Origin: Candidatus Pacearchaeota archaeon
GTDB taxonomy: Archaea; Nanobdellota; Nanobdellia; Pacearchaeales; GW2011-AR1
Direction of reading: 5' to 3'
DNA length: 52,638 nucleotides
Assembly: GCA_017609405.1 (NCBI GenBank)
Contig: JAFCDZ010000004.1
Span: 1-52,638 of the forward strand
Shown: positions 2,798 to 26,757 of the stretch, piece by piece
Layout: each line of letters opens with the position of its first letter
Position numbering within the stretch: position 1 is the stretch's first letter
Notes under the pieces: model-generated
Told to the model about the DNA's origin: nothing
What the model saw: the letters and a program-made list of their open reading frames with translations, nothing else
Database searches by the model: none
Made by a program: the position numbers and the translations under genes

Positions 2798-3707
2798 GGT
2801 AACCTAACTTTTTTGCTATTTCTTTCCAACTATCAAAATGTTTTCCTCTTATTTTAGGATGTATTGAAGGATGATTTTCATCTGGATGTTTTTGTTTTTT
2901 CTTTGTTAAGTCTCTTGTTTCCCAATAATATTTATGATGGGCTTCTGAAATTGGTTTTCCTTTATATTTTTTGGATTTTGATGCATATTTTTCCCAATTT
3001 TTTCTATTCAAATCAGCAAACTTTTTCAGAAGTTTATTTTTGTGTTCAACATTAAATCCTATTTTCTCAAATTCTTCAGCCCATATTTTTATTTGATGTT
3101 CCTTGTAATTTCTCATTCCCCCCTTATAGAATTTTAAAGTAGGATCAACAATGTTTGGGTGAGCAAATCGTATTGTATGGATAGGAACATCTAAATCTTT
3201 TAATAGATTGGCAATATCAATGCAAAGATCCCAATTAGTCATAATCTCTATATAAACTCTATTTTCAAAATCTTTCCAAGCCACATTACTTTTTCTTATA
3301 TGAGCAGTAACATCGGCGATTCCTCTAAGAAATTCTATTTTAACATCTCTGGGTGCACTGAATATTTCTTTAGGTATCCTAAAATCTCTCCAGCTAATTT
3401 TATTTTTAAGATACGCATTTATTGTTCTTATTAGGTAATCTCCGTTAGGTTTTGAGAAAGATATGTGAGCAATATTTGGTTTTGAGGTGTCCCAATTCAT
3501 ATCTACCCCGACGAGTGGTTTTAACCTTCCAACAATATCTAACAAACTAGCTTTTATTGATTGTTGGGTATTCTCACCTTCAATTACCAAATTTTTATGA
3601 GGAATGTCTATTATTATCTCTGTTTCTTTATTACCTCTAATAATTTGTCCTTTCCCTACAATCATTCCAAGCAAATAAGCTATATCGGGATTTAACATTT
3701 TTATCAC
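2790..3707 (-). CDS. protein with two LAGLIDADG-like helices (candidate nuclease / restriction subunit)
   Basis: 305 aa. DIAYLLGMIVGKG near the N-terminus and IEFLRGIADVTAHI about 120 aa later resemble the two motif helices of a monomeric LAGLIDADG fold. It overlaps the methyltransferase gene by 4 nt. Confidence 0.35.
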   Translation of the reverse strand: MIKMLNPDIAYLLGMIVGKGQIIRGNKETEIIIDIPHKNLVIEGENTQQSIKASLLDIVGRLKPLVGVDMNWDTSKPNIAHISFSKPNGDYLIRTINAYLKNKISWRDFRIPKEIFSAPRDVKIEFLRGIADVTAHIRKSNVAWKDFENRVYIEIMTNWDLCIDIANLLKDLDVPIHTIRFAHPNIVDPTLKFYKGGMRNYKEHQIKIWAEEFEKIGFNVEHKNKLLKKFADLNRKNWEKYASKSKKYKGKPISEAHHKYYWETRDLTKKKQKHPDENHPSIHPKIRGKHFDSWKEIAKKLGYHE

Positions 3708-6540: not shown

Positions 6541-6981
6541 TCAAAACTTCCCTTTCTTATACCTATATCTCCTATATCCTTTGTTATCAAGCTCTTCATT
6601 TAATAATTCATCTACAATTTGCTGATATTTATCCCATCTGGAGACATGAATGAATTTTACTTTTTTGAAGTTTTCAATTAGTTTCTGAACTTTTATAAAG
6701 AGAGGGAGAAGATTTTGATTTCTGACTCTATACTCTCCTAAAAGTTGTTTGACTACTAATTCAGAATCAAGAAAACAAGTTACTTCTTCTTTTGTAAATT
6801 TTGATGCAAGCTCAAGGGCTTTTATAAGAGCTTCATATTCTGCAATATTGTTTGTAACTCTTTCTCCAATAAATCCAGAATATTTTGTTAAAATATTCCC
6901 GTCTTTTCTTACAATTACTCCAATTGCTCCTGGCCCAGGATTTCCTCTCGCACCCCCGTCAGAATTTGTGTATATCATCAT
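6541..6981 (-). CDS. rnhA: ribonuclease HI (type 1 RNase H)
   Basis: 146 aa. DGGARGNPGPGAIG, NNIAEYEALIKALE and DSELVVKQ are the RNase HI acidic-residue motifs. Confidence 0.85.
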   Translation of the reverse strand: MMIYTNSDGGARGNPGPGAIGVIVRKDGNILTKYSGFIGERVTNNIAEYEALIKALELASKFTKEEVTCFLDSELVVKQLLGEYRVRNQNLLPLFIKVQKLIENFKKVKFIHVSRWDKYQQIVDELLNEELDNKGYRRYRYKKGKF

Positions 6982-7781
6982 AAGTTATCTAAAGGAGATT
7001 TAATATTCTTTATTGAAGCTTGTGAAATATGTGTATATATTTGAGTTGTTTTTATATTAGAATGTCCGAGTAACTTTTGAATAATTCTCAAATCAGTTCC
7101 AGATTCAAGGAGGTGTGTTGCAAATGAATGTCTGAGCAAATGTGGATAAACACGCTTTTTAATTCCCGCCTTTTTTGCAGAGTTCTGAATTATCTGGGCA
7201 ATTGTCTTTTTGGTTAGTTTTCCTTTGCGGTTAGATTCAAATAAAATTTTTGAATTTGAAAGTTTACAATAGCTCTTTAATTCTTCTCGTATAGATTCAG
7301 GAATATTGACAAATCTATCTTTTCTTCCTTTTCCTAAATTAATCTTGATTAAATTTTCTTCAAAATTAATGTCTCCTTTTTTAAGATTGGTTATTTCAGA
7401 AACTCTTAAACCACAACCATAGAGTAATTTTATTATTAGTCTATGTTTAATATTTGAAGTTGAATTTACCATTTTTTTAATTTCCTTGGATGTTAAAATT
7501 TCTGGTAAAGTTTTACTTTGTTTAGGGTTTGGGATATTGAGTTCTTGATGTAAAATTTCCCTAAAAAAATATTTAATAGCAAAAACCATAGTTCTTACAG
7601 AAGAAGCTTCTTTATTTTTTAAAGATTTGAGAATAAATCTTTTTGCACTTTCTGAATTGATACCTTTTTTGCTTGCAAATTCAAGAAAGTTCTTAACATA
7701 AAGCAAATAATTTTTAATAGTTTCTTTAGAATAATTCTTTAATTCAAGATTTTCTTGTAATTCCCTTAATAATTCTTGCAT
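6978..7781 (-). CDS. xerA: tyrosine recombinase, XerA/XerC/XerD-like
   Basis: 267 aa. It has an N-terminal SAM-like core-binding domain, then GLRVSE (Arg), HLLRHSFATHL (His-x-x-Arg), LLGHS and TQIYTH (catalytic Tyr). It overlaps rnhA by 4 nt. Confidence 0.9.
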   Translation of the reverse strand: MQELLRELQENLELKNYSKETIKNYLLYVKNFLEFASKKGINSESAKRFILKSLKNKEASSVRTMVFAIKYFFREILHQELNIPNPKQSKTLPEILTSKEIKKMVNSTSNIKHRLIIKLLYGCGLRVSEITNLKKGDINFEENLIKINLGKGRKDRFVNIPESIREELKSYCKLSNSKILFESNRKGKLTKKTIAQIIQNSAKKAGIKKRVYPHLLRHSFATHLLESGTDLRIIQKLLGHSNIKTTQIYTHISQASIKNIKSPLDNL

Positions 7782-7809
7782 AATTCTATTTATATTTGTA
7801 ATTTATAAA

Positions 7810-7870
7810 GGTTACTATACCTCCACTTTAAGACTAAATAGAAACCAAAATCTCACAATAGTTTATGTTA
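7810..7870 (+). repeat. 61-bp direct repeat, copy 1 (partner at 17409..17469)
   Basis: GGTTACTATACCTCCACTTTAAGACTAAATAGAAACCAAAATCTCACAATAGTTTATGTTA. It is 60/61 identical to copy 2, with the single mismatch at 7831 vs 17430. It starts 29 nt upstream of the xer ATG, and identity stops exactly after GTTA. Confidence 0.95.
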
Positions 7871-7877
7871 TATTCAA

Positions 7878-8254
7878 TTTCAGTTTCGCCCTTGATTAAG
7901 TTTTTTGTGTGTTTCAAGAACAAGTTTTTCTACTTCAGATCCACAAACTTCGCATGGTTCATTTTCTTCTTCACAACAATCATAATTGACTAAACAATTT
8001 AGACAATAATGCCACCATGCCTCTTCTTCATTTAATTTAGAGTTACAATTTGAACAAAAATAACCTTCTTGATAAACTTCAACTTTGTGTCCAGGTTTAA
8101 CTAACCTACATAATTCTGGCATGGCTAATTCCATAAATCTATACAGCTCAGTTTGTGGTATATTCTTTAATTCTTCTTCTAAATCTCTGATTGTTTTAAT
8201 CATATAAGATAGAAGTTTTATTTAAGTATTTAATTTTAACGGGCGAAACTGAAA
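7878..8254. repeat. unit A: perfect 14-bp inverted repeat pair enclosing one promoter+gene
   Basis: TTTCAGTTTCGCCC at 7878-7891 and GGGCGAAACTGAAA at 8241-8254 (14/14). The left arm starts 7 nt after the GTTA at 7867-7870. The right arm is followed by CTCTTCGGGATTT. Confidence 0.9.
7880..8203 (-). CDS. Cys-rich hypothetical protein (cargo of unit A)
   Basis: 107-aa ORF in an AT-rich background, with CSNC...CLNC...CC...CEVC clusters. Its last codons (GRN-stop) lie inside the left IR arm. Confidence 0.6.
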   Translation of the reverse strand: MIKTIRDLEEELKNIPQTELYRFMELAMPELCRLVKPGHKVEVYQEGYFCSNCNSKLNEEEAWWHYCLNCLVNYDCCEEENEPCEVCGSEVEKLVLETHKKLNQGRN

Positions 8255-8321
8255 CTCTTCGGGATTTCTTTCGCTTCGCTCAAGAAACTTAAATTATATG
8301 TATTATAAGCATTAGTTTTAC
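8255..8321 (+). repeat. junction repeat E1 (CTCTTCGG hairpin ... ATTAGTT end)
   Basis: Starts with CTCTTCGGGATTT. The hairpin GCGAAA(8243-8248)...C(TTCG)G...TTTCGC(8269-8274) spans the junction. Contains TTCGCTTCGCTC and ends with ATTAGTT (8311-8317). Confidence 0.6.
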
Positions 8322-8368
8322 TTGATAATACACGAAAACATTTATATATCTTAAACAAGATTTATGAT

Positions 8369-9133
8369 ATGATGAAGGATTGGGAAATTGCTTTGCAAAA
8401 ATTTCTAAAAAAATGGGAAAATAAAAAGGAGGTAATTGGTGCGCTTGTTTGTGGAAGCTACATCACTGGAAATCCCAGCAAACATTCTGATATTGACATT
8501 CACATTATTTTAGATTCAAAAACTTCTTGGAGAGAAAGAGGTAATGAAATCATCAATGGAATTTTGATTGAATATTTTGCTAATCCTATAAAAAATATTA
8601 TGAATATCTTGAAGACGATTATAAACAAAGAAGGAGAGTTAATGCTCATATGTTTTGCACTGGCAAAGTTCTTTTTGATAAAACATGTGAATTAAAAAAA
8701 TTGATTAAGGATTCACAAAAATATCTCATAAAAAAATATCCTAAACAAAACAAAATACAGGTGGAATCTGCAAAGTATCATCTTTGGGGACACATGTGAT
8801 AATTTGGAGGAAGTTTTTGAAGCAAATGCAAAAGAATTCTTTTTTGTTTTCTATAATAACTTGAATTTTTTATTTGAAACATATGCGGAATTTTTACAAT
8901 TTGATTCAATACCTGTTCATAAATTAAGACGTTTTCTTGTAAATAAAAAAGACAAGAAAAAATATCTTATAAGTGATTTTCCCGATAAAAAATTTGTAAA
9001 ACTATTTGTAAGAGCTATTAATCTTAAAAATAAATCTAAAATGATGAAAGAGTATCAAAAACTAACAAAATATGTTTTTGATAGAATGGGAGGATTTAAT
9101 ATTGATGGTTGGAAAATCAAAACTCCTGCTTAA
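8369..9133 (+). pseudogene. nucleotidyltransferase (KNTase/ANT-like) gene disrupted by at least two frameshifts
   Basis: The N-terminal part (8369..8695) carries GSYITGNPSKHSDIDIH (GS...DxD NTase motif). The middle part reads on in another frame (..YEYLEDDYKQRRRVNAHMFCTGKVLFDKTCELKKL..). The C-terminal part is ORF 8804..9133. Confidence 0.6.
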
Positions 9134-9164
9134 TAGTTTATGAAGTCAGATAAAGCAAATTGTT

Positions 9165-9252
9165 CTGTCTCACTCAATACCCAAATATATTCTTGTAACT
9201 TCGTTACTTGCATAGTTCTTTCGGAAAAATTCATAACTTATAAAAATTAACT
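9165..9252 (+). repeat. junction repeat E2
   Basis: CTCACTCAATACCCAAAT, hairpin GTAAC-TTC-GTTAC (9195-9207), CTTTCGGAAAAATT, and the end ..TCATAACTTATAAAAATTAACT. It aligns with E3b/E4 (..TCATAACCGCAAAACGTTAGTT). Confidence 0.55.
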
Positions 9253-9267
9253 TCTTTTAAAATTAAT

Positions 9268-9804
9268 ATGGTAATAAAGATTGTAGGTAATAGAATTTAT
9301 TTAAAAGAAATGGATGAAAGTGATGCGAAAAAACTCCACGAATACTCAAAAGAACCAAAATTAAATGAGTTTTCAGGACCCTACAAAGCATCAGAATCAA
9401 TAGACAAGGCAAAAGAGTATATTAAAGAATGTAAAAAAAATATTTTAGAAAATAAATCTTATGTTTTAGGTATATATAAAAAAAATACAAACGAGTTTGT
9501 TGGAACAATAGGTTTTTTTGATTTAGACGATGAAAATAAAAGTGGGGAAATAGGATTTTGGATTGCTAGAAATTACTGGAATAGAGGTTATATGACAGAA
9601 GCAGTTAGTTTAATGACACATTTCATTTTCAAAGTTTTAAAATATCACAGAATTTGTGCTCACTTCCATGAATTAAATAAGGCAGTTGAAAGAGTCTTAA
9701 GTAAAGCAGGATATAAAAAAGAAGGGGAATTAAAAGAAGCACTTAAATCAAAAGAAGGTAAGTATTATAATGAGATTATTTATGGTATAACAAGTAATTC
9801 TTGA
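9268..9804 (+). CDS. GNAT family N-acetyltransferase (RimJ/RimL-like)
   Basis: 178 aa. It shows the typical IYLKEMDESDAKKLHEY N-terminus and the GFWIARNYWNRGYMTEA acetyl-CoA motif A region. Confidence 0.8.
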   Translation: MVIKIVGNRIYLKEMDESDAKKLHEYSKEPKLNEFSGPYKASESIDKAKEYIKECKKNILENKSYVLGIYKKNTNEFVGTIGFFDLDDENKSGEIGFWIARNYWNRGYMTEAVSLMTHFIFKVLKYHRICAHFHELNKAVERVLSKAGYKKEGELKEALKSKEGKYYNEIIYGITSNS

Positions 9805-9840
9805 ATGCAATATTGTCTAAATTTCTTTTATTATCAAGCA

Positions 9841-15359: not shown

Positions 15360-15878
15360 TCATAATCTGACCCATCTAATTTCATAGTATATTACATCAC
15401 CTTCATTGTCAACAATTGCAATTAAGAGGTTCTTTCTTGTGGAATGTGCAACCCTGTTTTTTGCGGAAAATTCAGTCCATCTAAAATTATTTTTTTCTAA
15501 ATCTACAAAAACAATCCACTTTGAATGTTCTTTTTTTGGAGAACATCCCTTATCATAGACTCTAAAATCTCCTCCGAACTTAAATCCACTTTTTACAACA
15601 TACCCCTTTTCTCTGAGGTCCTTGAATACAATGTATCTTGCCAGACTCTTTTTATCTTTTCCTAATATTTTCTTTTTTACTTCTTCTAAAGATAATTTTT
15701 TATTTCTTGAATAAACCTCTATTTTCTCTTTTTCAAGTAAATAAATAACTTCCTCATCAAGATAAGAGATTATATTTTTTTCAAGGCTTCCAAGGGAAGA
15801 TTTTTCAAATAATGAAAATGCATTTGAATCATTACTCAAAACCTTTCCTCCAAGAAGATATGCTCTTATTTTTTTCAT
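15360..15878 (-). CDS. endA: tRNA-splicing endonuclease (homotetramer-type EndA)
   Basis: 172 aa. YIVFKDLREKGYVVKSGFKFGGDFRVY, HSKWIV and RVAHSTRKNLLIAIVD are present. Confidence 0.9.
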   Translation of the reverse strand: MKKIRAYLLGGKVLSNDSNAFSLFEKSSLGSLEKNIISYLDEEVIYLLEKEKIEVYSRNKKLSLEEVKKKILGKDKKSLARYIVFKDLREKGYVVKSGFKFGGDFRVYDKGCSPKKEHSKWIVFVDLEKNNFRWTEFSAKNRVAHSTRKNLLIAIVDNEGDVIYYEIRWVRL

Positions 15879-17369: not shown

Positions 17370-17408
17370 TTTTGAGTTTGTTGAAAATCTCTATTTAGAT
17401 TTTAGAGG

Positions 17409-17469
17409 GGTTACTATACCTCCACTTTAGGACTAAATAGAAACCAAAATCTCACAATAGTTTATGTTA
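17409..17469 (+). repeat. 61-bp direct repeat, copy 2 (partner at 7810..7870)
   Basis: 60/61 identical to copy 1, in the same orientation and 9,599 bp downstream. It begins 40 nt after the dcd stop. Identity again stops right after GTTA (17466-17469). Confidence 0.95.
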
Positions 17470-17548
17470 AAGAAAATATTTCCACTTTCTCCGTCGCTGT
17501 TTTAACTTTTATCGTCGGAGACAAGTCTCAAATTCTTATTTTGATATC

Positions 17549-17621
17549 TTCGTTTAACGCTCCAATCTGAAATTGTTTTTGTTGGATGTGCAACTTCAGA
17601 TAACATCGCTGATTAAACGAA
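17549..17621. repeat. 73-bp imperfect palindrome directly downstream of the unit B ORF (attC-like in size and ends)
   Basis: Outer arms are TTCGTTTAA 17549-17557 and TTAAACGAA 17613-17621 (9/9). Inner arms are TCTGAA 17566-17571 and TTCAGA 17595-17600. The left end contains GTTTAAC (RYYYAAC-type box) and the right end ATTAAAC. Confidence 0.6.
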
Positions 17622-17633
17622 ATTAGTGAATTT

Positions 17634-17810
17634 TTATTCTATCTTTTTTCCAAAAAATATTCTTATCGAGAACAACCAGAAAATTATTGCAGAAATTAAT
17701 AAAACCCAGTAGGTTGTTGTTGCAATTCCCGAAATATTTCTAATCGTAAAAAGTGTTAGTGCAACACCAAATACGGATGCTCCATCGATAAATCTTCTGT
17801 CGATTTTCAT
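17634..17810 (-). CDS. 58-aa two-TM hypothetical protein (cargo of unit B)
   Basis: Below the track length cutoff. MKIDRRFIDGASVFGVALTLFTIRNISGIATTTYWVLLISAIIFWLFSIRIFFGKKIE. A TATA-like box (plus-strand CTATATAAAT, 17831-17840) lies about 25 nt upstream of the ATG. Confidence 0.45.
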   Translation of the reverse strand: MKIDRRFIDGASVFGVALTLFTIRNISGIATTTYWVLLISAIIFWLFSIRIFFGKKIE

Positions 17811-17901
17811 AGTTTTATTAATTTCTCAAACTATATAAATTTTATTGTTCTCTAAAAAATCCACTAACTACGATATCAAAGAATTCTCGAAAGTGGAAAT
17901 A

Positions 17902-18126
17902 CTCTTCGGAATTTTTCCACTTCGTGAAAAACCGTCTTGCAGACTATTCCTCGTCCTCGCTTTCAGATCGGATTCCTTAACACACATTAAACGGTTCGCT
18001 CCGTTGCACTCGCTCACCCATATTTTTTGCTTCGCAAAAAACACTCGAGGTCACTTCGCTCCGCTCGTTTTGGCCCAAATTCTTGCTTCGCAAGAACTTC
18101 TCATAACCGCAAAACGTTAGTTTCAA
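17902..18126 (+). repeat. junction repeat E3 (two tandem, degenerate copies E3a/E3b)
   Basis: Starts with CTCTTCGGAATTT. Contains GGTTCGCTCCGTTGCACTCGCTCACCCATAT plus hairpin TTTTTGC-TTC-GCAAAAA (18024-18040). This is followed by GAGGTCACTTCGCTCCGCTCG..GGCCCAAAT plus hairpin TTCTTGC-TTC-GCAAGAA (18080-18096). Ends with GTTAGTTTCAA. Confidence 0.7.
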
Positions 18127-18419
18127 TCAGAAGCCGGCTCTTGCTGTTCTACAAGTAACTTTTCCAATTCATATTTTGGATGAATTTTAAAAAGCCTATA
18201 AGAAATAAAATGATGCTTTCCAGTTACAATATCTCCAATCATTTCTACGGAAAATGGGATGATTATTGGTGCTAAATATGGGCAGTGATATGTTGCGACT
18301 GTGCTTAAACCTAATCCCAATAGACCATAAATTCTGTTTCCTACATTGTACATTATTGTATGTCCATCAATTTTCCTAATTTGATACTGCAAATCTTCTA
18401 TTTGTTCATCTAAAGTCAT
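18123..18419 (-). CDS. hypothetical membrane-associated protein (cargo of unit C)
   Basis: 98-aa ORF with a hydrophobic core (IYGLLGLGLSTVATYHCPYLAPIIIPF). Its last codons (PASD-stop) lie inside the left IR arm. A TATA-like box (plus-strand TAGTATATAA, 18441-18450) lies about 25 nt upstream of the ATG. Confidence 0.55.
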   Translation of the reverse strand: MTLDEQIEDLQYQIRKIDGHTIMYNVGNRIYGLLGLGLSTVATYHCPYLAPIIIPFSVEMIGDIVTGKHHFISYRLFKIHPKYELEKLLVEQQEPASD

Positions 18420-18469
18420 AATTAAATAGTAACTGGAAAGTAGTATATAAAGTTAACGCCGGCTTCTGA
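18127..18469. repeat. unit C: perfect 12-bp inverted repeat pair enclosing one promoter+gene
   Basis: TCAGAAGCCGGC at 18127-18138 and GCCGGCTTCTGA at 18458-18469 (12/12). The left arm starts 7 nt after GTTA (18116-18119). The right arm is followed by CTTTGGATTTT. Confidence 0.9.
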
Positions 18470-18625
18470 CTTTGGATTTTTTGCCTTCACCCAACGTTGC
18501 ACTAAAATCCAACCTCTAACGAGGGAAACTAACAGCGATTAAGAGGCTACGCTCGGTTGCACCTCGCTCCACCCAAATTCTTCACTATGTTCGGAACTTC
18601 GTTAAATCGCATATGTTAGTTGCAA
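18470..18625 (+). repeat. junction repeat E4 (three consecutive hairpins)
   Basis: Hairpin TTGGATTTT 18472-18480 / AAAATCCAA 18513-18521, then CCTC-TAAC-GAGG, then the long imperfect palindrome 18527-18621. Contains CTCGCTCCACCCAAAT and ends with GTTAGTTGCAA. Confidence 0.7.
18527..18621. repeat. 95-bp attC-like imperfect palindrome
   Basis: AACTAAC (18527-18533) pairs with GTTAGTT (18615-18621), and GCGATT (18535-18540) pairs with AATCGC (18605-18610). The spacers are unequal (1 vs 4 nt). The G+C-rich interior 18543-18574 is about 69% G+C by my count. Confidence 0.55.
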
Positions 18626-19079
18626 TTTGAGATTTGGGCTAAAAAATAGTCAAATTAAAAATTTGAGTAATTATAAAAAAGAAGTTGGCATCTAAAGATT
18701 TTCAGTAAACGAAAGATAAGCTTGAGTTTTGTATGCATTTCTTACTCTGTCGCCCCATTCTGCTCTTTCTGAGGGGCTCAATCCGTTATCTCTATCATCC
18801 AAAACTCTTCTCGCTGTTTCTTCAGCAGTTATTGCACCTATATCATATCTACCGCCTTTCGCTCTTTCTATTGTAGCAACTGCTGTGCTCAATGCAGTTC
18901 TAGATGCTTGTCCTCTTTTAAATGCTTGCATATACAATGCTTGCAGATACATATCTGCGATTCCTTGTGACATTTTAATTCACCTTATATCTAGTTGCAA
19001 TAGCAAGTATTTAAATCTTTCTGTTATTCACTACTATGAAGATACAACGCCAACTTCTAAGGTACGCCCAAATCTCAAA
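18626..19079. repeat. unit D: perfect 14-bp outer plus 10-bp inner inverted repeat pairs enclosing one gene
   Basis: Outer pair: TTTGAGATTTGGGC 18626-18639 / GCCCAAATCTCAAA 19066-19079 (14/14). Inner pair: AGAAGTTGGC 18680-18689 / GCCAACTTCT 19049-19058 (10/10). The outer left arm starts 7 nt after GTTA (18615-18618). The outer right arm is followed by CTTCTTCGCC. Confidence 0.9.
18692..18973 (-). CDS. Ala/Arg-rich hypothetical protein of foreign composition (cargo of unit D)
   Basis: 93-aa ORF with 3 Lys, 10 Arg and many Ala, unlike the Lys/Ile/Asn-rich neighbours. It is visibly more G+C-rich. GGTGA lies 7 nt upstream of the ATG. Confidence 0.55.
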   Translation of the reverse strand: MSQGIADMYLQALYMQAFKRGQASRTALSTAVATIERAKGGRYDIGAITAEETARRVLDDRDNGLSPSERAEWGDRVRNAYKTQAYLSFTENL

Positions 19080-19125
19080 CTTCTTCGCCTACGGCTCCGA
19101 CCACACTGCGCTCTCTTTTCTTAAG
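19080..19125 (+). repeat. junction repeat E5 (truncated/degenerate)
   Basis: CTTCTTCGCCTACGGCTCCGACCACACTGCGCTCTC... is G+C-rich. It sits in the same position relative to the right IR arm as E1/E3/E4 and has no clean GTTAGTT end. Confidence 0.45.
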
Positions 19126-19290
19126 TAGGAAATAAATAACAAAACCAAAAAGAACAAAAAATATTTAAACTCCTTTATTTTTTGATTTTTATGGATATTA
19201 GCAAGCAAATTTTATTCTTGAATGCTTTGCTAATCAGTGTTCTGTTACTGCTGTTATAATTCTGCTTCTTTTTTGAAGCAGGGAGGTAAA

Positions 19291-26450: not shown

Positions 26451-26686
26451 TTCGAATCCAAATGCCCGAACCAGGATTCGGGCCTCATATCAAAGATATT
26501 CGACCTGCTTCGCCCAAGCGTGGTAAGCAGGCCTCACAAAGTTCGACCTGATACGCTTACTCACTTCGTTCGTAATCAAATTAGGCCTCACCAAAGCACT
26601 GAAGCTCGACCTGATACGCTTACTCACTTCGTTCGTAATCATATCAAACCTAAAGGTTCGAATCCAAATGCCCGAACCAGGATTCG
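26451..26686. repeat. 30-bp perfect direct repeat pair duplicating the 3' end of tRNA-Arg plus its flank
   Basis: TTCGAATCCAAATGCCCGAACCAGGATTCG at 26451-26480 and 26657-26686 (30/30). The second copy covers the last 18 nt of the tRNA plus 12 nt of trailer. Confidence 0.95.
26543..26641. repeat. 36-bp perfect tandem-type direct repeat (period 63) between the two tRNA-end copies
   Basis: TCGACCTGATACGCTTACTCACTTCGTTCGTAATCA at 26543-26578 and 26606-26641. A third, diverged unit at 26499-26540 starts with the same TCGACCTG. All units recall the T-arm CAGGTTCGAA read on the tRNA strand. Confidence 0.9.
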
Positions 26687-26757
26687 AACCTGGATTCCAA
26701 CCTGTTTGCAGAGCAAACTTCCGCAAGGTTGTGTTCTATCCCTTGAACTATTCGGGC
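26669..26757 (-). tRNA. tRNA-Arg (GCG) with a ~17-nt intron at the canonical 37/38 position
   Basis: Hand fold: GCCCGAA-T-A-GTTC-AAGGGATA-GAAC-A-CAACC-TTGCGG[AAGTTTGCTCTGCAAAC]A-GGTTG-GAAT-CCAGG-TTCGAAT-CCTGG-TTCGGGC-A. The intron forms GTTTGC-TCT-GCAAAC. A TATA-like TTTATAAAG lies about 25 nt upstream. Confidence 0.85.

Follow-up and report, generated by a model that had tools for sequence, protein, structure and literature searches.

Integron cassettes are mostly promoterless and co-oriented, and they are expressed from Pc. The G|TT crossover of these elements lies inside the attC stem, and hence the R' and R'' boxes come to stand at opposite ends of a cassette. In the integron integrase VchIntIA, an additional, IntI-specific domain, situated around patch III / helix I2, contacts extrahelical bases of the folded attC. 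Xer recombinases are regarded as the ancestors of integron integrases, and the origin of attC and of the cassettes is a long-standing question. Clusters of attC sites that lack an integrase are reportedly set apart as CALINs (Cury et al. 2016). Modules of accessory genes, as in the pdif modules of Acinetobacter plasmids and in IMEX, are also thought to be moved by a host recombinase of the Xer type. The Xer site of Pyrococcus abyssi, dif, reads ATTGGATATAA-TCGGCC-TTATATCTAAA (Cortez et al. 2010, PMC2958812).

The locus considered here belongs to a stretch of 52,638 nucleotides from a Candidatus Pacearchaeota archaeon, which was analysed as a whole and is referred to as the window. Sequence comparison makes it likely that three cassettes (B, C and D) make up an array of the integron type, joined to a second copy of an attI-like site that directly follows dcd, and moved by a XerA-like recombinase. 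An earlier note on this DNA had held that no known architecture combines unit-specific terminal repeats with a shared docking site. It had set integrons aside on the ground that their palindrome follows the ORF and does not surround it. That claim fails: the locus matches the integron type, whose cassettes likewise have R' and R'' at opposite ends. The stem is much longer here (a 12-nt box plus a cassette-specific extension of 10-30 nt), and this makes the split palindrome conspicuous on both sides of the gene.

Cassettes and their inverted repeats

The three units are bounded by perfect inverted repeats of 13 nt (B), 12 nt (C) and 14 nt (D), as the earlier note had read them, and a fourth unit of identical geometry (7878-7891/8241-8254) adjoins the recombinase gene (Table 1). 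GTTA occurs at 17466, 18116 and 18615, the left arm always starts exactly 7 nt further on, and the right arms are followed immediately by CTCTTCGG, CTTTGG and CTTCTTCG. TATA-like boxes lie inside the units, ORFs B, C and D are all encoded on the minus strand, and the last codons of ORF C are encoded by the left arm of its unit. The earlier note was also right to exclude a chance origin: the interval 17370-19140 (about 1.8 kb) contains five perfect inverted repeats that are 12 nt or longer and enclose loops of 100-600 nt, whereas 2000 dinucleotide shuffles contained 0.10 on average and in no case as many as three.

Table 1. Positions of the recombinase gene, attI-like sites, cassettes and their parts in the window.
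Feature	Position	Strand	Remarks
XerA-family tyrosine recombinase, candidate cassette recombinase	6978..7781	minus	267 aa
attI and R' box of the first cassette	7782..7878	+	attI 7782-7866; box GTTATATTCAAT 7867-7878
Cassette A, first after the recombinase attI	7868..8290	+	arms 7878-7891 / 8241-8254 (14/14)
ORF of cassette A	7880-8203	minus	107 aa
Leader remnant of cassette A	8255-8290		attC core lost
EndA gene (tRNA-splicing endonuclease)	15360-15878
S0, second copy of the attI-like site, directly after dcd	17408..17466	+	ends at G of crossover G|TT
R' box GTTAAAGAAAAT	17466..17477	+	'GTTA + 7 nt' of the earlier note; reverse complement of ATTKSNNNYAAC
Cassette B	17467..18116	+	arms 17477-17489 / 17889-17901
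ORF B	17634-17810	minus	58 aa, two TM segments, own TATA box
Leader hairpins of cassette B	17902-17972
attC 'S1' of cassette B	17973-18127		duplicated core
Cassette C	18117..18615	+	box 18116-18127; arms 18127-18138 / 18458-18469
ORF C	18123-18419	minus	98 aa
Leader of cassette C	18470-18521
attC 'S2' of cassette C	18522-18626
Cassette D	18616..19140	+	box 18615-18626; arms 18626-18639 / 19066-19079
Inner inverted-repeat pair of cassette D	18680-18689 / 19049-19058
ORF D	18692-18973	minus	93 aa; TATA about 19008-19015
Leader of cassette D	19080-19129
R''-like remnant of cassette D	19130-19140		AAATAAATAAC only

Within one cassette, R' and R'' are complementary at eight or nine of nine positions: in cassette B, R'' TTCCTTAAC (17973-17981) and the sequence at the cassette start, GTTAAAGAA, match at 8/9 positions, and in cassette C, R'' GAAACTAAC (18525-18533) is complementary to the start GTTAGTTTC at 9/9. 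Cassette D lacks an attC core and therefore forms the end of the array. ORFs A-D could be placed in no family of Pfam or PADLOC, one weak PADLOC match having been set aside. In the window they run antisense to the array direction and have their TATA boxes within the cassettes, so that the promoterless, co-oriented arrangement of integron cassettes is not seen there; in two arrays elsewhere (L016 and L202) the ORFs are co-oriented.

The arms are not peculiar to the window. For 27 of 57 sites an exactly matching partner, 10 nt or longer and no more than 3 kb away, was found, compared with 10 and 3 of 57 in controls, and in 25 of the 27 partnered sites the arm directly abuts the box. In L016 the arms reach 26-34 nt. 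The pairwise covariation that the earlier note had asked about is seen in cassette C, whose arms differ between the window (CC/GG) and L265, from another sample (TT/AA), by two compensatory base-pair changes. The D family is uninformative on covariation, its arms being invariant in most units; a one-sided change breaks one pair in L263/L264, and the arms are lost or decayed in L004/L007. Judged from sequence, the unit-specific arms are the outer extension of the R stem of each cassette's own attC: with the crossover deep inside that stem, its two halves end up flanking the gene. A simulated excised junction of cassette C folds into a single hairpin (dG -40.5, against -20.2 +/- 2.9 in shuffles; z = -7). 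The arms probably stabilise or nucleate the hairpin fold of the excised circle, and where the array DNA is single-stranded, they may make the gene loop out, so that the two attC sites that flank it come together.

The attC-like and attI-like sites and the crossover

The sequences between the units had been taken as background by the earlier note. They are more than that: these GC-rich spacers (44-48% G+C, against about 30% for the window, and G-rich on the sense strand of the ORFs) are the attC-like sites themselves. A conserved 12-nt box, ATTKSNNNYAAC, occurs at about 60 sites on contigs of CPR bacteria and DPANN archaea, in the forms ATTTCGCCTAAC / GTTAGGCGAAAC and variants that fit RYYYAAC/GTTRRRY; the junction geometry is found widely in other genomes. 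In an RNAalifold consensus of 32 sites, the L stem has 10 bp, and nearly every one of its pairs shows double changes, in 8-20 of the 32 sequences; the consensus also has an invariant AAGTT/AATTT helix that includes a G.T pair, and a GGT/ACC helix. Like attC sites, these sites are imperfect palindromes in which R''/R' and L''/L' boxes can be recognised, and they differ from classical attC in their sequence-conserved apex. In the same alignment, the G.T pairs of the G-rich strand never vary, and the junction has two unpaired G residues and an asymmetric spacer. The invariant G.T pairs point to the G-rich strand, the minus strand of the window, as the one that would fold. Folded alone, the spacers give a non-significant z of about -1.6, and Rfam 15 contained nothing similar, whether at the gathering threshold or at E<=10. 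The orientation of the genes relative to the spacers is free; that of the spacers relative to attI and the recombinase is fixed.

The first examples from CPR bacteria (L016 and L041) came from a 14-mer scan of genome contigs that returned mostly chance matches, and a scan of viral contigs for these sites returned chance-like matches only. Arrays were found in L016, a Falkowbacteria contig, and in the metagenome contigs L212 and L202. The cassettes carry small genes of varied kinds (GNAT, nucleotidyltransferase, methyltransferase, HAD, Maf and proteins of no known kind). For a comparison of the dcd-leuS interval, a scan of genome contigs with dcd found no relative, the closest dcd homologues being at most 47% identical, and a search for 'empty' junctions of leader and box gave nothing convincing apart from one possible case, a 14-nt unit in L191.

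The position of the crossover can be read from cassettes that occur in more than one place. An identical D' cassette with its attC is present on seven contigs, which diverge right after ATTGCATATAAC (..TATAAC) into at least four different contexts, one of them attI with a recombinase; the break point between contexts is the AAC/GTT of the box. In the window, S0 is identical at 61 of 62 positions to 7810-7870, between the recombinase gene and the first cassette, and this identity also stops at GTTA. Both breaks place the crossover at the G|TT of R', and the 'GTTA docking site' of the earlier note is this crossover box. Its suggestion of a hotspot of cassette capture and exchange also holds. The same or related cassettes are found in several different neighbourhoods. 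Unit D recurs in L003, L253-L264 and others, where the array around it varies; the leader and attC modules of homologous D units look unrelated, which is unexpected under simple cassette inheritance. A homologue of cassette C (C', in L265) is placed at attI beside a recombinase gene, and homologues of ORF C in L266, L271 and L274 are ordinary chromosomal genes without arms. The gene in cassette C is a captured copy, its counterpart in other DPANN genomes lying next to eIF2-gamma as an ordinary gene of the chromosome; the cassette copy has a C-terminal extension of five residues, encoded by the arm.

Cassettes lie directly at attI beside homologous recombinase genes in at least seven independent loci from two domains of life. 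The box is followed, after about 60-120 nt, by the recombinase start codon in the window, L003, L256, L260, L265, L143/L223 and L200; L201 and L202 have the box and attI with the recombinase gene inverted, and in all of these attI adjoins that gene. Homologous attI sites can hold different first cassettes (L003 vs L256). The attI of L201/L202 contains repeated TATATCCGAAC/GTTCGTATAT palindromes that match the L arm of attC.

The recombinase, the proposed mechanism and its alternatives

The protein encoded at 6978-7781 matches Pfam Phage_integrase (1.7e-44) and belongs to the XerA family (NCBIfam XerA_Arch, NF040815: 253.9 bits, cutoff 220); its closest PDB match is P. abyssi XerA, with 193 bits in one continuous stretch. 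Aligned with VchIntIA (2a3v), its residues 5-175 correspond to 6-184 and its residues 185-266 to 238-319. VchIntIA residues 185-237 (about 53) have no counterpart, so that the IntI-specific domain is absent and the protein is not an integron integrase by this mark. The array-adjacent recombinases are 263-273 aa long where complete and have XerA_Arch as their best model. All five that were scanned with NCBIfam match the IntI model, TIGR02249, below its cutoff and in two stretches. The earlier note had pointed to the tyrosine recombinase about 10 kb away as a possible cassette enzyme; the repeated adjacency of such genes to cassettes and the similarity of motifs make this likely. What speaks against it is that the array B-D lies 9.6 kb from the gene, that its last cassette has no complete attC, and that the protein lacks the domain by which VchIntIA touches the extrahelical bases.

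On the plus (C-rich, 'top') strand, a cassette starts at the TT of the 12-nt R' box, G|TTAGTTNCAAT. The cassette-specific arm comes next, followed by the gene with its own archaeal promoter (antisense here), the complementary arm, a GC-rich leader of small hairpins and finally the cassette's own attC, in which the R'' box and the L stem lead to a conserved three-way junction, and L' and R' follow as far as the next G. In the mechanism proposed, the XerA-like recombinase and its homologues would bind the folded G-rich strand, in which the R duplex (the box) and the L duplex (..ATATCCGAAGTT..) would imitate the two 11-bp arms of dif. Cutting would occur after ..TAA|C, and cassettes would be excised as circles and inserted at attI. 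The crossover being the inner end of the R stem, integration would leave one half of the stem at each cassette end, and once a cassette is excised as a circle, its arms would fold together with the box, the L stem and the core into one long hairpin.

Several other readings have to be weighed against this one. An ordinary IntI-dependent CALIN, served by a canonical integrase elsewhere or in another cell, is the strongest of them, though unlikely; the XerA-like neighbours would then be housekeeping dimer resolvases. The window protein scores above the XerA equivalog cutoff, and on that ground may be a plain chromosomal dimer resolvase; the fit of the boxes to RYYYAAC/GTTRRRY is another point for the CALIN reading. 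Archaeal integrons are reported mostly as CALINs, and the archaeal IntIs reported have the IntI-specific domain (PMC9668308), which also counts for a CALIN. Against this, the recombinase gene starts or ends about 60-120 nt from a cassette-ending box in at least seven loci of two domains, the box and L arm resemble the arms of XerA dif sites, attI in L201/L202 has the same half-site palindromes, and no protein with the IntI insertion was found among about 270 fetched loci. It is less probable still that a Xer-type enzyme acts on double-stranded DNA, with dif-like arms joined by cruciform extrusion and the units moving as modules of the pdif/IMEX kind. The boxes do resemble dif arms, and L212 has a core-less site (about 3361-3390), ATTGAATATAA-C..14 nt..G-TTATATTC, near an ordinary dif. 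However, the invariant G.T pairs and strand-asymmetric hairpins of the GCGAAGC type point to one folding strand, an insert of 80-110 nt with a conserved three-way junction would be needless in a double-stranded site, and the crossover is seen at one box only.

A feature at the RNA level (a structured RNA, processing stems or introns such as bulge-helix-bulge ones cut by EndA, with the arms as long-range helices that release or circularise the ORF RNA) is very improbable. Its supports are the richness in G of the spacers on the sense strand of the ORFs, the covarying stems and the nearby EndA gene, but Rfam gave no match even at E<=10, the promoters lie inside the arms, the genes are freely oriented relative to the spacers and the break points are crossovers at the DNA level. 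Bulge-helix-bulge introns were considered by fitting the arm junctions by hand on both strands and were rejected, the helices being perfect, without 3-nt bulges, and the flanks lacking the motif, in which two such bulges stand on either side of a 4-bp helix. That each unit is a small MITE- or IS-like element with its own terminal repeats, targeting sites with GTTA, is hardly credible: perfect repeats do bracket genes at a fixed distance from a conserved motif, but no two units have the same arms, where such families share their terminal repeats, the units are flanked by the conserved box and leader and not by target-site duplications, no transposase is present, and natural variants place the attI-side cassette boundary at the box and not at the arm ends.

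It is proposed tentatively, as an idea with somewhat less than an even chance, that CPR bacteria and DPANN archaea share a 'Xer-integron', with a short XerA-type recombinase that has no IntI domain, a folded attC of dif half-sites around a conserved three-way junction, and cassettes whose long private stems are kept by compensatory change. If true, it could represent an ancestral state that preceded classical integrons, or an independent invention. With its XerA-like recombinase, dif-arm-like boxes and a half-site common to attI and attC, the locus is a candidate intermediate or parallel form, and cassette C would offer a concrete example of cassette formation. Current tools would score such arrays as CALINs, that is, as integrase-less, and integron-like gene exchange in ultra-small, host-dependent lineages may therefore be under-recognised.

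Comparison with known systems

Pdif modules and IMEX resemble the locus in that accessory-gene modules are associated with a Xer-type recombinase, but they use complete double-stranded XerC/XerD sites, without folded attC-like sites, a recombinase-side attI or module-specific stems. XerA/dif shares the recombinase family; the half-site here, ATTGAATATAA (box ATTGAATATAA|C), differs from ATTGGATATAA at one position, and the deduced cut is likewise at the border of arm and spacer. Unlike dif, a single double-stranded site of 28 bp (11-6-11) in the region of replication termination, the arms here are 80-110 nt apart and apparently pair in a folded single strand, and the sites are numerous and bracket accessory genes. 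By the rule that two or more attC sites must stand without an integron integrase within 4 kb, the array at 17.4-19.1 kb is a CALIN, as it has three attC-type sites (S1, S2 and the remnant, at 17973-19140) and the nearest recombinase gene ends at 7781. It differs from a CALIN in opening with a near-identical copy of the attI that stands beside the recombinase gene 9.6 kb away.

The closest likeness is with the integrons themselves, both the chromosomal and mobile ones of bacteria and the archaeal ones of Ghaly et al. 2022 (PMC9668308). A tyrosine recombinase gene adjoins attI, and tandem cassettes alternate with attC sites, which are imperfect palindromes that contain R''/R' (RYYYAAC/GTTRRRY) and L''/L' boxes. 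Strands cross over at G|TT, one cassette is found in different arrays, and the genes carried are small and varied. Here, unlike in integrons, the recombinase is XerA-like and without the IntI-specific domain, the R boxes are of 11-12 nt and resemble dif arms, the free 'variable terminal structure' of attC is replaced by a sequence-conserved three-way junction (G-AAGTT..AATTT-G-GGT..ACC), the R stem extends into cassette-specific arms of 10-30 nt, the DPANN type has an extra GC-rich leader domain, and the window cassettes have their own promoters and lie antisense to the array. The locus is a variant of the integron kind and not a separate category.

Inverted repeats and genes of the array

The locus is a real cassette exchange locus of the integron kind. 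An earlier note, made from the sequence alone, had guessed at cassette exchange in the array of units B, C and D after dcd, and this was borne out by breakpoints at G|TT, by a duplication of attI and by the presence of the same cassette in several contexts; its suggestion of a new category of architecture was not, as the locus belongs with integrons. The three inverted repeats reported to bracket these units (arms, specific to each unit) are perfect and in place, as are the GTTA tetramer 7 nt ahead of every left arm, the CTYTTYGG-type motif behind every right arm and the TATA-like boxes located within the units for all three ORFs. Nor are the repeats due to chance: when perfect repeats 12 nt or longer, enclosing loops of 100-600 nt, were counted, 17370-19140 contained five, against a mean of 0.10 in 2000 dinucleotide shuffles, none of which held three or more.

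ORFs B, C and D all lie on the minus strand, and a Pfam search of them matched no family. The 58-aa product of ORF B has two TM segments and recalls small membrane toxins. In cassettes B and C, the complementarity of the 15 nt directly 5' of the start codon to a stretch of the same ORF may form an mRNA stem masking the ribosome-binding site. The contig itself is archaeal and of low GC, and encodes a tRNA-splicing endonuclease, ribosomal protein S17e and TrmB; by annotation, relatives of ORF D are Nanoarchaeota and one dcd relative is from Pacearchaeota. Its listed tRNA is probably an archaeal tRNA with an intron.

Coordinates of features in the window and in related loci (L numbers: other CPR/DPANN genomes or metagenome contigs)
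Feature	Position	Strand	Description
Integron-like platform	window 6978-9805		complete, near the B-D array; recombinase, attI, cassette A and further genes
Tyrosine recombinase gene	window 6978-7781	minus	
Cassette A	window, arms 7878-7891/8241-8254		107-aa ORF, no family
Nucleotidyltransferase-type gene	window 8369-8695 and 8804-9133		apparently stop-interrupted
Degenerate attC	window ~9140-9225		
GNAT acetyltransferase	window 9268-9804		
Start-codon complementarity, cassette B	window 17691-17705 / 17812-17826		15/15
attC of cassette B	window 17973-18127		155 nt, duplicated internally; two tandem core-motif copies, AAGTT..TTTGGGCC and ..TATGGGTG
Start-codon complementarity, cassette C	window 18216-18230 / 18426-18440		14/15
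tRNA	window 26669-26757	minus	89 nt; Rfam 55 bits; ARAGORN gives 4-base anticodon 'gcgg'
HTH regulator gene, 3' end	L003 4590-4710		directly repeated (AATCTCTGATTTTG..CTATCTGT) flanking ~70-nt insert, at outer edge of array
Cassette with unrelated gene	L141 1518-2345		arms TCAGAAGTCGGCC/GGCCGACTTCTGA nearly those of cassette C; same leader family
Short unit	L191 index ~1899	minus	right box GTTATATGATGT, then just 14 nt (GCCGTTTTTCCGGT) to next left box; may be an 'empty' cassette
Site without core	L212 3361-3390		ATTGAATATAAC-TTAGCGATTGCT-GTTATATTC; boxes and stem ends retained, three-way junction precisely deleted; resembles near-ordinary dif-type site
Rearranged recombinase gene	L260 88-130 and 1357-1400		beside D' cassette (homologue of D); truncated after 128 codons by a rearrangement, which introduces repeat of sequence also found at locus start
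ORF C family	L266 2501-2785, L271 2501-2824		conserved small gene adjoining eIF2-gamma

Recombination sites and crossover point

The inter-unit spacers have a G+C content of 44-48%, against about 30% for the window, are C-rich on the plus strand and share motifs found nowhere else in the window; an Rfam search of them gave no matching family. On the minus (G-rich) strand, the element comprises a 12-nt left box ATTKSNNNYAAC, a stem, then G-AAGTT, a hairpin, AATTT-G-GGTG, a second hairpin and ACC-G, the returning stem, the right box GTTRNNN... and, in this genome, a leader of 50-70 nt of small GC-rich hairpins ending RAGT, with the next arm directly after. It recurs as an array of five in L016 (Falkowbacteria, CPR), in another Patescibacteria contig (L041) and in metagenome contigs, where a pattern scan returned 120 loci, about 60 of them clearly this element and many with textbook integron core sites (e.g. 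GCCTAAC ... GTTAGGC). Consensus folding of 32 of these copies with RNAalifold gave an R stem TAAC/GTTA, a 10-bp L stem with double (compensatory) changes in 8-20 of the 32 at nearly every pair, and a tight three-way junction made of an invariant AAGTT/AATTT helix with a G.T pair and a GGT/ACC helix. Because of the G.T pairs, the G-rich strand is the predicted folding strand of this attC-like site.

The spacers are recombination sites, with crossover placed at the GTTA because the D cassette stands in several contexts, cassette ends are complementary and attI is duplicated. Homologues of ORF D with 67-79% identity are found in other Nanoarchaeota, in differing gene neighbourhoods. An 87-aa variant (P0007) is present on seven contigs from sister samples, all seven identical in the gene, both arms, the promoter-side leader and attC; past ATTGCATATAAC on the other side the sequences differ, comprising three distinct attC sites and, in L256, attI followed by a recombinase gene. 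Read on the plus (C-rich) strand, the break at ATTGCATATAAC corresponds to the classical G|TT in R' core sites. The cassette start after G|TT is complementary, beyond the consensus, to R'' of its own attC (9/9 in cassette C, GTTAGTTTC versus GAAACTAAC; 8/9 in B; 8/8 in L003 and in two cases in L016). On the plus strand past the recombinase gene, about 85 nt are followed by GTTATATTCAAT and then by cassette A, the fourth arm-bracketed gene. The 62 nt ahead of the recombinase-side GTTA are identical at 61 positions to the stretch directly downstream of dcd, and identity stops at GTTA; the B-D array therefore begins at a second attI copy. The layout of cassette, box, ~60-120 nt and recombinase start is also seen in L003, L256, L260 (gene truncated), L265, L143/L223 and L200, whereas in L202 and L201 box and attI adjoin the 3' end of the gene. 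The first cassette differs between L003 and L256, although their recombinases and attI sites are homologous.

Cassette D, the last, retains an R'' remnant only and lacks the attC core; leader and attC modules of homologous D units look unrelated, and between C and its homologue C' whole sub-hairpins are swapped with junction motifs retained. Such differences could stem from fast hairpin-wise turnover among attC copies, or from exchange at a second point, at the base of the arm.

Unit-specific arms and the origin of cassette C

The geometry described for the window recurs beyond it: at 27 of 57 sites (shifted probe 10/57, reversed probe 3/57), a perfect reverse complement to 10 nt or more of the 20 nt adjoining the left box lies no further than 3 kb away, and in 25 of these 27 the match touches the box without a gap. 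CPR-type arms directly follow the right box (GTTRNNYGATGT|arm) and reach 26-34 nt, while in the DPANN type the leader hairpins separate the 9-bp box stem from RAGT|arm. The latter arms usually have at the end a GC clamp whose inner boundary is constant (..GGC|G ... A|GCC..), resembling a GNA-loop minihairpin with the gene in place of the loop. Genes lie within cassettes in either orientation. Cassette C' of L265, a contig from another sample, has 87% protein identity to cassette C, and its arms (CAGAAGTTGGC/GCCAACTTCTG) differ from those of the window (CAGAAGCCGGC/GCCGGCTTCTG) by two adjacent compensatory changes, one side being inside coding sequence. The earlier note had proposed a test for such pairwise covariation between strains; arm pairing is maintained.

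With the crossover at the innermost position of the R stem, the R'-side part distal to it is moved to the opposite end of the cassette upon integration. This part measures 6 nt in classical integrons, whereas here it is the 11-nt box and a private extension. The arms may make the fold more stable once the cassette is an excised circle or, alternatively, bring together the attC sites on either side while the array DNA is single-stranded. The simulated junction of excised cassette C (DNA parameters) folds as one composite hairpin that takes in arms, box, L stem, core and leader branches, with a dG of -40.5 kcal/mol versus -20.2 +/- 2.9 for shuffles.

In other DPANN genomes, members of the ORF C family are ordinary chromosomal genes adjoining eIF2-gamma or ribosomal protein genes, with neither arms nor attC, whereas cassette copies carry an arm-encoded 5-residue C-terminal extension (EPASD / EPTSD) and a stop codon within the box. 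The armless homologues and this arm-encoded ending argue that cassette C is a host-lineage gene captured together with its promoter.

Recombinase type and comparison with integrons

Array-adjacent recombinases with a complete gene all measure 263-273 aa. In an NCBIfam scan of five, the archaeal XerA model was best for each (window recombinase 253.9 bits, cutoff 220), and the integron-integrase model matched in two pieces only. Compared with solved structures, the window recombinase aligned over its whole length with P. abyssi XerA, but its alignment with VchIntIA leaves out residues 185-237, the IntI-specific domain. Archaeal IntIs published to date possess this domain (PMC9668308). P. abyssi dif reads ATTGGATATAA-TCGGCC-TTATATCTAAA (PMC2958812); in the present sites the box reads ATTGAATATAA|C and the deduced crossover falls where arm and spacer meet; such boxes fit a Xer enzyme. 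The attC L arm (..ATATCCGAAGTT..) reappears as palindromes TATATCCGAAC..GTTCGTATAT in attI of L201 and L202. A folded attC would present two duplexes, R and L, imitating the two dif arms.

Four features, for whose combination no description was found in open-access papers and bioRxiv preprints, distinguish this locus from described integrons: the recombinase is Xer-type and without the IntI domain, the boxes are dif-like, the attC apex is a junction conserved in sequence, and the stems are long and cassette-specific.
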